In this document: piece by piece, positions 35,444 to 54,150 of the stretch
Layout of the letters: every line of letters begins with the position of its first letter
Position numbering within the stretch: the first letter of the stretch is position 1
Source of the DNA: Giardia intestinalis
Lineage: Eukaryota
DNA: 64,000 bases
NCBI GenBank assembly: GCA_000002435.2
Contig: CM018792.1
Direction: 5' to 3' (one strand)
Notes under the pieces: generated by a model
What the model was told of the DNA's origin: nothing
The model's database searches: none
Seen by the model: the letters and a program-made list of their open reading frames with translations, nothing else
Translations under genes and position numbers: made by a program

Positions 35444-37186
35444 TCACGCCTTCCCCCTACATATGAACCACCAGCAGAGGAAGCCGACGAGGCCCCCCAC
35501 GACGACGACCACGGCGACGGAGATCCCCGCGATGGCGCCTGTGCTGAGGCCGCTCCTGTTGGTGCCAGAGGACACACACTTACCATTGTCTAGACTGAAG
35601 CCACTGTTGCACTCCCCACATATATTATCCATCACACAGCTCTTACAACCACCCACAGAGCACAGGACACACCCACTGCCGTCCCTGTTGGGCTTCCTAT
35701 CACTGTCACAGGAGGTACACACAGCAGCAGCCATACCACCCTCAGTCAGAGCTGTTGGGGCTGTGCACTGTGAGCAGCCATCCACCCCCACGTATGCCTT
35801 AGCAGTATCACCAGTGCCTGTCAGTGTGCCTAGGGGGTTGCTACAAGCCAACACGGACTGATCAGTGTTGGATGCCCCTGGGACCAGGAAGTACTTATTA
35901 CTTGCTGCCTCTGTGCATATCCCATTACTACTTGATGCCTTGCACATGAAGCTACCTGGTTCTTGACCAACCTTATAACAGCCTCCCATATATAAGAAGT
36001 ACCCTTGAGCACACTGTGTACATGTATGACTGTCACAGGTATTAGTTCCTTTCTTATTATTATCACTAGTACATATACCATCAATAGGGAACTTATTAGC
36101 CTCTCCACAGTAAGAACAATAGTGCTTTGTGGTGCCCTGATCATCTATTATCATGGCATCACAGGCGCCAGAGGTACCACCGCAAGCCGTTGTATCCTCG
36201 CAGGTCTTTGTACATGTGACCCCAGTTGAAGGGGTACCGTTTTGCTTGTAGTTGGGCTTACAGGAGTTGCAGGTCAACGAGCCAGAGAAGGTGCACGTTG
36301 CACATCCATCGATGCCCCCCTGTGCATTATCACAAGCAACGCACTCACCAGTAGGACCACTGCCTTTCATGAAGAATCCAGGCTTGCATTTAGTACACTG
36401 ATTATTGCCAGTTTGAGTGCAGGTGGCACAATTATCACCACAGGCTGCGCATGTAACCGTACCACTACCACTACTGTAGTATCCAGCTAAGCACTCTGAG
36501 CAGGTTGGATTGGCACTTGCTGTCTTCGTGCAAGCCTTACAGCCAGCAATGCCTTTGTTCTTTGGGTCTGATCCGCTGGTATCGCTGCACAAGACACACG
36601 CAGCATCACCATCTGCCTTGAAGTGATCAGCATCCTCGCAGCCAGAGCTTATATCGACGCATGTCGTGGTGCCATCGATGGCCGTCTTCACCTTCTTATT
36701 GTTATTACAGGCGGTGCACTGGGGCTTACTGACAGTCGCATTGTACTTACAGGTAGTACATGCTTGATCTATCGTACTGCATTCCTTGCACGTTCCAGAC
36801 TCTGGGTCTGGATAAACGGTGCTCGTGCATTGATCACTAGTTACGCAAGTCTTATCACCCTTCAAGTACTTCCCCTCTGGACACGATGTGCACTGGGCCG
36901 CCGATGTCTCACAGGTCAGACAAGTACCATCACACTTGCTACATGCCTGAAAGTCCTTGTAGTACCCTGCTTGACAGGCAGTACACGTGGCTGCCCCCTT
37001 ATTACTATCTGACTTGGTGCATGTGGCGCAGTTAGCCACCCCCGTATACCCATCTGCTCCCGTGGCATCATGACAGAGTATGCACTCCCTTCCCTTCTCT
37101 GGTGCTGTAGCAGGGTTCTGGAATACGTACTTGTTATCTGTCTTACAAGCAGTGCACAGTCCATTACTGGCTGCTGTGCATATCAC
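35444..37186 (-). CDS. VSP-like unit A (body module a + tail module 1); ends ...WWFICRGKA; no ATG and no signal peptide
   Basis: Frame opens at a TAG in the spacer. The ORF-track M at 37184-37186 is GTG (VICTAASNGLCTACK...). CxxC-rich throughout, with one GGCY (FLYMGGCYKVGQEPGSFMC). AGTAAAC at 35430-35436 lies 7 nt after the stop. Confidence 0.65.
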   Translation of the reverse strand: MICTAASNGLCTACKTDNKYVFQNPATAPEKGRECILCHDATGADGYTGVANCATCTKSDSNKGAATCTACQAGYYKDFQACSKCDGTCLTCETSAAQCTSCPEGKYLKGDKTCVTSDQCTSTVYPDPESGTCKECSTIDQACTTCKYNATVSKPQCTACNNNKKVKTAIDGTTTCVDISSGCEDADHFKADGDAACVLCSDTSGSDPKNKGIAGCKACTKTASANPTCSECLAGYYSSGSGTVTCAACGDNCATCTQTGNNQCTKCKPGFFMKGSGPTGECVACDNAQGGIDGCATCTFSGSLTCNSCKPNYKQNGTPSTGVTCTKTCEDTTACGGTSGACDAMIIDDQGTTKHYCSYCGEANKFPIDGICTSDNNKKGTNTCDSHTCTQCAQGYFLYMGGCYKVGQEPGSFMCKASSSNGICTEAASNKYFLVPGASNTDQSVLACSNPLGTLTGTGDTAKAYVGVDGCSQCTAPTALTEGGMAAAVCTSCDSDRKPNRDGSGCVLCSVGGCKSCVMDNICGECNSGFSLDNGKCVSSGTNRSGLSTGAIAGISVAVVVVVGGLVGFLCWWFICRGKA

Positions 37187-37208
37187 CCACTATCACACAC
37201 TGCACAGC

Positions 37209-37215
37209 ATTCACT
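37209..37215 (-). promoter_or_regulatory. AGTGAAT putative polyadenylation signal (Giardia AGTRAAY) 7 nt after the CRGKA stop of unit B
   Basis: Minus strand reads ...AGGCGTGA CTTAGGT AGTGAAT GC. The identical arrangement follows every CRGKA stop in the array. Unit A has AGTAAAC at 35430-35436. Confidence 0.55.
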
Positions 37216-52333: not shown

Positions 52334-52392
52334 ACTCCACTATCACCCTCTATCACACACTATCACACACTGTACAGCATTCACTACCTAAG
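52334..52392. repeat. short (59-bp) variant of the inter-unit spacer
   Basis: ACTCCACTATCACCCTCTATCACACACTATCACACACTGTACAGCATTCACTACCTAAGTCACGCC. Short spacers of 36-67 bp also lie at 37187-37222, 41014-41049, 54151-54209 and 61649-61715. Confidence 0.7.
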
Positions 52393-54150
52393 TCACGCCT
52401 TCCCCCTACACACGAACCACCAGCAGAGGAAGCCCACGAGGCCCCCCACGACAGCGACCACAGCGACGGAGATCCCCGCGATGGCCCCCGTGGAGAGCCC
52501 GCTCCTGTTGGCGCCAGAGGACACACACTTACCATTGTCTAGACTGAAGCCACTGTTGCACTCCCCACACACACCGTCCATCACACAGCTCTTGCAGTTG
52601 GTGTCAGAGCATACTACACACCCACTGCCATCCTTGTTGGGCTTTTTATCACTGTCACAGGAGGTGCACACAGCGGGGGTCATACCACCATCAGACAGAC
52701 CTGCTGGGGCTGTACATGCTGAACAGCCATCTATTCCCACATATGCCTTAGCAGCACTATCAGTGCCTGTTGATGTGCCTAGGGGGTTACTACATGCCAA
52801 CACGGACTGCTGAGCATTGGTTGCCCCCGGAACCAGGAAGTATCTATTGTTGGCTGCTTCTGTACAGACACCCTCCTTACTTGATGTCTTGCACATGAGG
52901 CTACCTGGTTCTGTATTAACCTTGTAACAACCATTCATATACATAAAGTACCCTGTAGTACAAGACTCACAGACATGGTTGTTACAAGTATTACTTTGAG
53001 CCTCACTAGCACAGAGACCATCTATAGGATACTTACTGCTATCCCCACAATAGGAACAGTAATGATGCTCTACTCCATCATTGTCGATCACTATAGCATC
53101 GCAGGCCCCTGCTGTCCCACCACACGCAGTATCATCTTCACAGGCCTTTGTACATGTGACCCCAGTTGAAGGTTCTCCACTGGGTCTGTAGTTCACCTTG
53201 CATTTTGTGCACTTAAATGTGCCACTATTTGTGCACTCGGCACACCCCTCGATGCCACCTTTGGTTGTGTCACTACATGAGATGCACTCACCAGAGGAGC
53301 TATCCTTCAAGAAGTACCCTTGCTTACATGTCAGGCACTTACTCGGATCTTCCTTCTTGGAGCATGTCGCACAGCCTGGAGCGCACGGATCGCATGTAAA
53401 GCCCCCGCTTCTGTTCTCGATGTATCCCTCCAGGCATTCTGTGCAGGCTGGATTGGCACTCGCTGTCTTCGTGCAAGCCTTACAGCCAGCAATGCCTTTG
53501 TTCTTTTGTTCTGAATCCGACGCTGCGGGATCACTGCACAAACGACACACGTTGTCCTCGGTCATAAAGAGACCGTTATCAGCTCCTTGACACCCGGCGT
53601 AGTTCTTCGCCACGCAGGTCGAGGTTCCATCAAGGGTCGTCCTGGGGATCTTGGTTCCATCATCGCCACACTTACTGCACTTCGGCTTCTTGGTAGTCGA
53701 ATCAACTTCACACTGGGTACAGCTGGGATCTATCGTACTACATTCCTTGCACGTTCTGGTAGCTTCGTCAGTATAGTGTGTGCCTGTGCATGAGCCAGCT
53801 ACGACACAATCAGTCCCCTTCAGGTACTTCCCCGCTACGCAGAGGGTGCATGCATTCTGACCGGTTCCACTACACGTCTCGCAGTCGGTATGACATTTGA
53901 CACATGCACCGTTACCATCTTTATAGTACCCTGCTTGACACTCTGTACACGTGGCAGCTCCTGGACTACCACTTGGTTCCGTGCACTTGAGGCAGTTAGC
54001 CACTCCTTTGTTCTCATTCGCTCCCGTGGCATCATGGCACAGGATGCACTCCCCACCAGGGGTCACCTTCTCTGCCCTGTTCTGGAATATGTACTGGTTA
54101 TCTGTCTTACAAGCAGTGCACACTCCATCCTTGGCTGCTGTGCATATCAT
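52393..54150 (-). CDS. VSP-like unit J (body d + tail 1); true in-frame ATG, no signal peptide
   Basis: ATG at 54148-54150, MICTAAKDGVCTACKTDNQYIFQNRAEKVTPGGECILCHDATGANENKG... Distinct body with CHTDCETC and QGADNGLFMTEDNVC. Tail CVVCSDTNCKSCVMDGVCGECNSGFSLDNGKC...CRGKA. Confidence 0.65.
   Translation of the reverse strand: MICTAAKDGVCTACKTDNQYIFQNRAEKVTPGGECILCHDATGANENKGVANCLKCTEPSGSPGAATCTECQAGYYKDGNGACVKCHTDCETCSGTGQNACTLCVAGKYLKGTDCVVAGSCTGTHYTDEATRTCKECSTIDPSCTQCEVDSTTKKPKCSKCGDDGTKIPRTTLDGTSTCVAKNYAGCQGADNGLFMTEDNVCRLCSDPAASDSEQKNKGIAGCKACTKTASANPACTECLEGYIENRSGGFTCDPCAPGCATCSKKEDPSKCLTCKQGYFLKDSSSGECISCSDTTKGGIEGCAECTNSGTFKCTKCKVNYRPSGEPSTGVTCTKACEDDTACGGTAGACDAIVIDNDGVEHHYCSYCGDSSKYPIDGLCASEAQSNTCNNHVCESCTTGYFMYMNGCYKVNTEPGSLMCKTSSKEGVCTEAANNRYFLVPGATNAQQSVLACSNPLGTSTGTDSAAKAYVGIDGCSACTAPAGLSDGGMTPAVCTSCDSDKKPNKDGSGCVVCSDTNCKSCVMDGVCGECNSGFSLDNGKCVSSGANRSGLSTGAIAGISVAVVAVVGGLVGFLCWWFVCRGKA

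Follow-up and report, generated by a model that had tools for sequence, protein, structure and literature searches.

Linear arrays hold over half of the vsp repertoire of Giardia; their spacers average 60 bp and reach 241 bp, the initiator is absent in all downstream members, and long regions of 100% identity are shared among members (Adam 2010, PMC2996952). The same study reported GENECONV evidence of vsp recombination, including a 'clade 3' set made up of vsp217, vsp139 and vsp138, and proposed a cassette hypothesis for the start-less array members. Linear pseudo-VSP arrays in WB were also described by Xu et al. 2020 (PMC7000408), segmental conversion was stated as already demonstrated in G. 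intestinalis in the G. muris genome paper (PMC7641422), VSPs were enriched among gene-conversion tracts in a 2025 population study (PMC12669663), and Giardia VSP mosaics were listed as an established observation in a 2026 Nature paper (PMC13233330). Here we analysed a 64,000-nucleotide (nt) stretch, the window, of chromosome 4 of Giardia intestinalis WB clone C6 (2,761,001 bp, 2020 PacBio reference), in which a VSP array of 16 head-to-tail units, labelled A to P, occupies positions 35444-64000 on the minus strand. We read this array, with a probability of about 0.85, as the distal part of a linear VSP pseudogene-cassette array that has been repeatedly recombined. Both the kind of feature and the recombination reading are already known (Adam 2010; Xu 2020). 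What is added here is an exact map of modules and breakpoints, a distinction between block duplications and conversion tracts, an argument that the cassettes are not decaying, and the full-length patchwork relation of an intact gene, VSP1269, to the cassettes.

The WB arrays of Adam 2010 and Xu 2020 are the same kind of locus in the same organism, and the present array is very probably one of them. All share the head-to-tail arrangement, spacers of tens of bp, and downstream members that lack the initiator, an ATG and a signal peptide. In Adam 2010 the first member carried the initiator, whereas the head of the present array lies outside the window; that work also drew on a fragmented Sanger assembly, with arrays broken or collapsed, and tested only 234-657 bp at the 3' end, whereas full units were resolved here. 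The arrays of signal-peptide-less VSP copies in Giardia muris are similar in kind, and phylogeny suggested recombination or segmental conversion between them and intact VSPs, with a proposed reservoir role (PMC7641422). However, the G. muris arrays are nearly all telomere-adjacent in a genome with few intact VSPs, whereas the WB array stands beside housekeeping genes at a synteny break. Further likenesses are found in the VSG pseudogene arrays and mosaic VSGs of T. brucei, the vls locus of Borrelia and msp2 of Anaplasma, where tandem, truncated, promoterless copies have junctions in short homology and an expression-competent gene appears as a patchwork of cassette segments. In those three systems conversion into the expression site during infection drives switching; Giardia switching is thought to be epigenetic or based on RNA interference among ~130 intact genes, and we know of no demonstration of real-time conversion in Giardia. 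The in-register multi-unit duplications, chimeric units and homogenised copies also resemble concerted evolution of tandem arrays. Unlike the outcome of complete concerted evolution, 5-6 body types that are ~40% divergent coexist at this locus.

Sixteen CRGKA-stop ends were found on the minus strand (at 35444, 37223, 39169, 41050, 42963, 44909, 46726, 48672, 50489, 52393, 54210, 56025, 57999, 59868, 61716 and 63671), bearing out the count of 16 units given in an earlier note on this DNA. They delimit 15 complete units, each 1779-1974 nt long, and a sixteenth that is cut off at the edge of the window. The unit translations contained 70-78 Cys and 26-29 CXXC motifs each, a conserved transmembrane segment preceded the C-terminal CRGKA, and the Pfam VSP domain (PF03302) scored 111-114 bits against a cut-off of 31.4; the Cys-rich composition, CXXC and GGCY motifs that mark a VSP were thus all present. 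However, the units had no signal peptide and lacked the first ~100 residues with the N-terminal domain, both of which are required of an intact VSP (Xu 2020; Rodriguez-Walker 2022), and their alignment to full-length VSPs started only at residue ~97-116. The open reading frames (ORFs) of the units began with MICTAA..., MCTECN... or MLYSDSDS..., whereas intact VSPs have MFQLIPLFVASALMA. Units I, J and L had an in-frame ATG, with N-termini (MICTAAKDG..., MLYSDSDS...) that are not signal peptides; the ATG-initiated ORF of unit I, for example, encoded 614 amino acids (aa) and no signal peptide. The initiator PyAATGTT, present in 72% of vsp genes other than downstream array members (Adam 2010, PMC2996952), was absent from both strands between 35000 and 64000. 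The units are 5'-truncated pseudogene cassettes of a linear array and not the VSP genes that they had been taken for, and since they have neither a start context nor a signal peptide, the locus shows shuffling of cassettes and not of expressed genes.

All units had the same order of parts, from the preceding stop through CTTAGGTAGTGAATGC and a spacer of 10-nt repeats to VSP codons, entered ~100 codons into the gene. The repeat unit (GGGTGATAGT on the minus strand) was present in 3.4-5.7 copies and, because its length is not a multiple of three, it places TGA, TAG or TAA in all three frames in most units. Codons for EICTKAEGGVCT... or ICTAAS.G.CT... followed directly. The gap from one ORF to the next stop was 36-122 nt in most units, which is the spacing of a linear array. 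CTTAGGTAGTGAATGC includes a poly(A)-signal-like AGTGAAT, which we take to fit the Giardia poly(A) signal consensus AGTRAAY. Further examples of the spacer repeat were seen at 39072-39143, 42866-42937 and 52338-52371, and its letters suggest that the repeat is what remains of the CGDGYF(L)FMGGCY coding region after expansion by slippage. At the start of unit L (57920-57998) the spacer was open in frame, with an ATG right after the TAGTGA of the poly(A)-signal region. A similar Ser/Asp-rich start peptide was found in the old WB annotations XP_001703902.1, XP_001706653.1 and XP_001707663.1, indicating that such a spacer-derived start recurs in other arrays. Retroposition was ruled out as the origin of the units, which had no poly(A) tracts and whose spacers were homologous and repeat-derived.

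The 15 complete units were aligned as nucleotides with MAFFT (2049 columns), and the module map was drawn from pairwise tract analysis, a 30-column haplotype map and a copying-model decomposition, all of which agreed. Whole-unit identities were bimodal, at ~57-73% or 87-100%, and the background between body types was ~60%. Zero-mismatch tracts of 100-1800 nt were found, after which the matching partner changed abruptly. Unit A matched C without a mismatch over columns 1-1583 and F and H without a mismatch over columns 1569-1743 and 1756-1929, while C was identical to B over columns 1482-1988, confirming that A and C share a body and differ in their tails. Unit F was identical to B over columns 1-215 and to H thereafter; F and H do combine body c with tail 1, and F does carry b-type first codons. 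Unit D was identical to H over columns 1-1706; I followed J over columns 1-191 and then C; K followed H to column 1678 and was then J-like; and M was identical to L over columns 130-990 and to N from column 424. Unit O, previously described as a mixture of b, e and tail-2 segments, matched B over columns 220-1233 and L over columns 1384-1868 as described, with a 107-nt match to J in between (columns 1264-1370) that the description had missed.

At sites that distinguish the two putative parents, the recombinant agreed with one of them to the left of the switch and with the other to its right (triplet Fisher p 1e-15 to 1e-107), and the PHI statistic fell 73 standard deviations below the permutation mean (z = -73). 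For the switch in unit A, which equals C upstream and F/H downstream, Fisher p was 4e-97. Crossover intervals, defined as the stretches where the recombinant matches both partners, were 0, 0, 5, 14, 15, 18, 20 and 30 nt long, plus one of 102 nt, in a set that leaves out D and the L/N switch of M. These intervals lay in somewhat more conserved sequence than average (0.69 vs 0.60, P ~0.02). The proposal that breakpoints fall at Cys-rich junctions was right for the A/C example, just before VGVDGCS, but did not hold for all of them, the general tendency being a moderate enrichment in conserved stretches. A Hudson-Kaplan Rmin of 142 'events' was discarded, as the four-gamete test is saturated when body types are ~40% divergent. 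Because zero-mismatch tracts change partner within 0-30 nt against a ~60% background, recombination is the only reasonable reading, and an origin of the mosaic units by recombination within the array is supported.

The modular pattern described in the earlier note, a few bodies joined to three tails, held in outline with a larger set of parts: 5-6 body types (a, b, c, d, e/L and e'/MN) and at least four tail variants were distinguished, including CVVCSDTNC in J, K and P and a deleted version of tail 3 in M and N. Its lengths for A (580 aa) and C (614 aa), its quoted peptide strings and its assignment of CFSCAISGCSHCNRDDMCEVC to D were all correct. The mosaic does not end at 54150, as had been given, and extends to the window edge. 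The coordinates of the units and of the features around them are collected in the table.

Table. Units, patches and crossover intervals of the VSP array, with neighbouring features (window coordinates)
Feature	Position	Strand	Description
Unit A, last of array	35444-37222	minus	body a + tail-1 patch + A-specific 3' end
Unit A ORF	35444-37186	minus	580 aa, GTG start only, no signal peptide
A-specific terminal 120 nt	35444-35563	minus	~13 substitutions in no other unit
Tail-1 segment of A	35564-35792	minus	internal conversion tract
Unit A crossover interval	35793-35807	minus	15 nt, TACTGCTAAGGCATA, T-A-K-A-Y codons just before VGVDGCS
Unit B	37223-39168	minus	body b + tail 2, 607-aa ORF; few substitutions vs E and G
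Example inter-unit spacer	39047-39168	minus	stop + CTTAGGTAGTGAATGC + GGGTGATAGT repeats, then EICTKAEGGVCT; same layout before every unit
Unit C	39169-41049	minus	body a + tail 2, 614 aa; a/b shared interval 39620-39721
Unit D	41050-42962	minus	body c + tail 3 (CFSCAISGCSHCNRDDMCEVC), 596 aa
Block E (b + tail 2) + F (c + tail 1)	42963-46725	minus	duplicated as G+H
Second F/H patch	44974-45007	minus	4 differences in 34 nt, transmembrane/tail region
Crossover interval of F patch	46539-46558	minus	
Patch in F	46559-46654	minus	8 clustered differences from H; b-type first codons MCTECNTANG on c body
Block G+H	46726-50488	minus	second copy of 3763-nt higher-order repeat
Unit I	50489-52392	minus	J-type spacer and first codons, then body a + tail 2
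Unit J	52393-54209	minus	unique body d + tail-1 variant
Unit K	54210-56024	minus	body c, then J-like tail; two 1-nt homopolymer deletions; crossover interval 54462-54491
Unit L	56025-57998	minus	body e + tail 2; open spacer (MLYSDSDSAMWCGGDSDSMRLLFMGGCY...), 653-aa ORF
Units M + N	57999-61715	minus	body e' + deleted tail-3 variant; both frameshifted (1-nt homopolymer deletions)
Unit O	61716-63670	minus	body b to column 1263, J-type patch 62386-62483, then L-type + tail-2 variant
Unit P	63671-64000	minus	last 110 codons in window; J-like tail
High-cysteine membrane protein (HCMP group 4) KAE8304459.1	32302-34755	minus	exact-sequence match; borders array
VSP-like ORF	29534-31657	minus	weak PF03302 match
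tRNA-Arg, anticodon TCG	26921-26994	minus	sole Rfam/ARAGORN match in window

Unequal crossover and gene conversion between units had been offered as alternative sources of the mosaic, and both are visible. The block E+F recurs as G+H with a period of exactly 3763 nt, and the two copies differ at 12 positions in 3763 nt, all within the two patches at 44974-45007 and 46559-46654. Exact repeats also ran across unit boundaries, with 41372-43515 equal to 48898-51041 (2144 nt, covering tail 2, spacer and body c) and 42892-44973 equal to 46655-48736 (2082 nt, period 3763 nt). These repeats were found by an exact diagonal scan; a blastn self-comparison at >=99% missed most of them. Duplications in register across unit boundaries, with chimeric units at the junctions, are the mark of unequal crossover, and block duplication by this route is visible. 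Short-tract gene conversion is visible as well: both alleles of each difference patch between E+F and G+H were found in other units, the H alleles at 44974-45007 being common to O, A, J and K. The tail-1 segment of A is an internal patch and not a crossover product, because it has body a upstream and 120 nt of A-specific sequence downstream, and this A-specific sequence is the original end of the array.

Homologous recombination between misaligned units has thus repeatedly remodelled the array. Unequal crossover or template switching duplicates blocks of one to two units and leaves chimeric units, and short-tract conversion (tens to a few hundred nt) moves patches between units, with the junctions placed in short stretches of identity inside otherwise ~60% identical sequence. 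Protein comparisons suggest that the exchange also reaches the intact, expression-competent VSP1269.

VSP1269 was recognized as KAE8304460.1, a 689-aa VSP with a signal peptide (MFQLIPLFVASALMA...) on the same chromosome, contained in the cluster of a near-identical database match. Its accession directly follows KAE8304459.1, the HCMP that borders the array, and as accession order follows the window coordinate, it would be the next annotated protein-coding gene past the pseudogenes. With 80 Cys, 28 CXXC motifs and 69.7 kDa it equals the vsp139 '1269' entry (VSP1269, GenBank M83934), a first-in-array gene with a TAATGTT initiator on chromosome 4, which is listed right after vsp138 'S6' (Adam 2010, PMC2996952). 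Since vsp139 is VSP1269 and vsp138 is S6, which corresponds to unit J, the clade 3 test of 2010 covered the present locus. Residues 104-689 of VSP1269 were covered by exact peptide matches of at least 15 residues to the units, except for 601-606. From the N-terminal side, the matches were to L (104-118), O (117-166), A/C/I (161-217), L (216-577, 362 consecutive residues), N (572-600), A (607-650, including the A-specific VMDNIC) and the common tail (646-689). Reading N across its 1-nt deletion gave an 11-residue match that spans the gap at 601-606, and residues 1-103 had no counterpart in any unit of the window. At the protein level, intact VSP1269 is therefore a mismatch-free patchwork of cassette modules, as a mosaic of silent-cassette segments would be, and transfer could have run in either direction. 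The closest foreign relative of VSP1269 (P0021, 71% identity) stood in an unrelated context and was set aside as not syntenic. Literature searches on VSP1269 and on the AY1421xx accessions found nothing.

Two further proteins share exact segments with the array. Residues 196-585 of unit J (52393-53565) were 100% identical to VSP S6 (AAN52101.1/AY142127, vsp138, GL50803_135882, 390 aa); if the 2002 S6 clone came from cDNA, a member of a pseudo-VSP array is transcribed. An 83-residue block of body c (in D, F, H and K; 41680-41928 in D) recurred unchanged in KAE8304683.1, an intact VSP on chromosome 5 that is otherwise ~45-55% identical to body c, and the right edge of the block lay at the motif FLYMGGCY. 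This suggests ectopic conversion between the array and a VSP gene on another chromosome. The earlier note had seen in this locus the engine of VSP repertoire evolution caught in the act; shuffling is indeed found, among cassettes only, and its link to the repertoire rests on VSP1269, outside the window.

The array might also be a passive graveyard of discarded, decaying VSP copies, in which exchange is a by-product of tandem repetition (concerted evolution) with no input to the functional repertoire. This is one of two options given in Adam 2010 (PMC2996952), and it accords with the units being without start, signal peptide and initiator, with frameshifts in 3 of 15 units, and with plain duplicates (B, E and G at 99.8-100%; identical bodies in D, H and K) that show homogenisation and not diversification. 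However, nucleotide differences between body types amount to 30-41% (mean 37.6%), and five of the six types nevertheless kept open frames of 560-650 codons. The ratio of nonsynonymous to synonymous divergence between body types (dN/dS) was 0.25-0.36 at dS 0.7-1.3, and 66 of 80 Cys columns were invariant. A neutral simulation at the observed per-lineage divergence gave ~14 stops per unit, and none of 5000 replicates stayed open. The exact VSP1269 patchwork and the 83-residue block in KAE8304683.1 also stand against pure decay, which we consider rather doubtful, and we infer that the array is not simply decaying in place. The common truncated 5' boundary points to a single truncated ancestor of all units, in which case the coding divergence was imported by conversion from functional genes or was kept by selection. 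We give even odds to the array being a long-term reservoir that trades coding segments with functional VSP genes, in either direction. The more specific proposal, a maintained donor archive in which cassettes kept by selection would feed VSP1269, and occasionally VSPs on other chromosomes, by conversion, seems unlikely on present evidence.

Several points weigh against our reading of a recombined array that exchanges with VSP1269. A single PacBio assembly, the only long-read assembly to cover the region, underlies the order of the units and their copy number. Short-read contigs stop ahead of the array, and the Logan contigs with the neighbouring phospholipase B gene all end ~380 nt past that gene. 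The five frameshifts of the array, at 54402-54499 in K, 58280-58367 in M and 60149-60237 in N, were all 1-nt deletions in short homopolymers near the body/tail junction (A5 to A4, AA to A, C5 to C4, and twice CC to C, once each in M and N, which have one deletion in common), and they may be genuine mutations that duplication has propagated or else errors in the long-read consensus. That VSP1269 is contiguous with the array is taken from accession order and from a table of 2010 based on a collapsed assembly, and this head gene was compared with the cassettes at the protein level only. Breakpoints are only modestly enriched in conserved stretches (P ~0.02), and the 'parents' of each chimera are the closest surviving units, which makes breakpoints and event counts approximate.

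The dependence on one assembly, the early end of the short-read contigs and the homopolymer frameshifts would all fit a mosaic produced as a chimeric consensus from noisy long reads. This is very improbable: the final 181 residues of A are reproduced by XP_001704929.1 from the 2007 Sanger assembly, across the body-a/tail-1 junction and into the unique 3' end; XP_001703851.1 equals the tail of F; and the 2002 clone S6 (AAN52101.1) reproduces 390 residues of J. These exact matches provide independent sequence support for the chimeric units, and a chimeric consensus would not yield kilobase zero-mismatch tracts flanking every junction. Gradual divergence of tandem duplicates without exchange, with the modules reflecting rate variation along the gene, fits the generally greater conservation of VSP C-terminal than N-terminal regions (PMC2996952) but has next to no standing, since units are 100% identical to one partner on the left and to another on the right, each being 20-40% divergent on its other side, the phylogenetic signal is strongly position-dependent (PHI test), and at a body-type background of ~60% the unit alignment set as a check gave sharp switches with near-identical flanks, which exclude it.

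The repeatedly recombined cassette array continues past the window, as the J-like tail of unit P indicates, and P is not the head gene. A WB protein, XP_001703902.1 (P0007), equals L for its first 312 residues and then M/N, and ends in a tail-3 variant absent from the window; it may be either a further unit past 64000 or a chimera of the 2007 assembly. On the other side of the array, seven of nine ORFs in the left part of the window were identical to proteins within KAE8304445-KAE8304459 by exact-sequence look-up, and the accession numbers increased with window coordinate in all 7 proteins checked. A contig of assemblage E (P15) was collinear with 15214-28753 at 86.5% identity; collinearity broke at 28753, right after the phospholipase B gene, and the contig continued with unrelated housekeeping genes and no cysteine-rich genes. 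For the P15 genes past the break, a cluster look-up found no WB orthologues. A contig of assemblage AII (DH) matched the window up to 30289 and ended shortly after. With P15 collinearity stopping and the DH contig ending here, the cysteine-rich block formed by the VSP-like ORF, the HCMP and the array lies at a synteny break, as has been reported in general for such gene families (PMC7000408). The WB-specific part (28753-35443) was G+C-rich, at 0.56-0.585 in places.

No telomere was found in the window, and Rfam and tRNA scans of the array gave no match. Two array ORFs looked up exactly were absent from a collection of 15 billion proteins, and the closest database match of unit B had 66% identity, which fits units annotated as pseudogenes. 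Antisense ORFs of ~200-274 aa, mostly with TTG or ATG starts, recurred on the plus strand opposite c-type and a-type units (for example 42658-43482, 46421-47245, 50184-51008 and 55720-56544) and are most likely a by-product of skewed composition (plus-strand GC skew ~-0.17) and unit duplication.

The role of the ~200 pseudo-VSPs in Giardia is an open question (PMC2996952; bioRxiv 10.1101/2022.03.07.483299), and antigenic variation in this organism is usually described as a purely epigenetic choice among intact VSP genes. The present locus establishes no new principle; with one head gene and a resolved set of cassettes, the cassette hypothesis of 2010 becomes testable. If the array is a donor archive, recombination would add a layer of diversification on top of epigenetic switching in Giardia.

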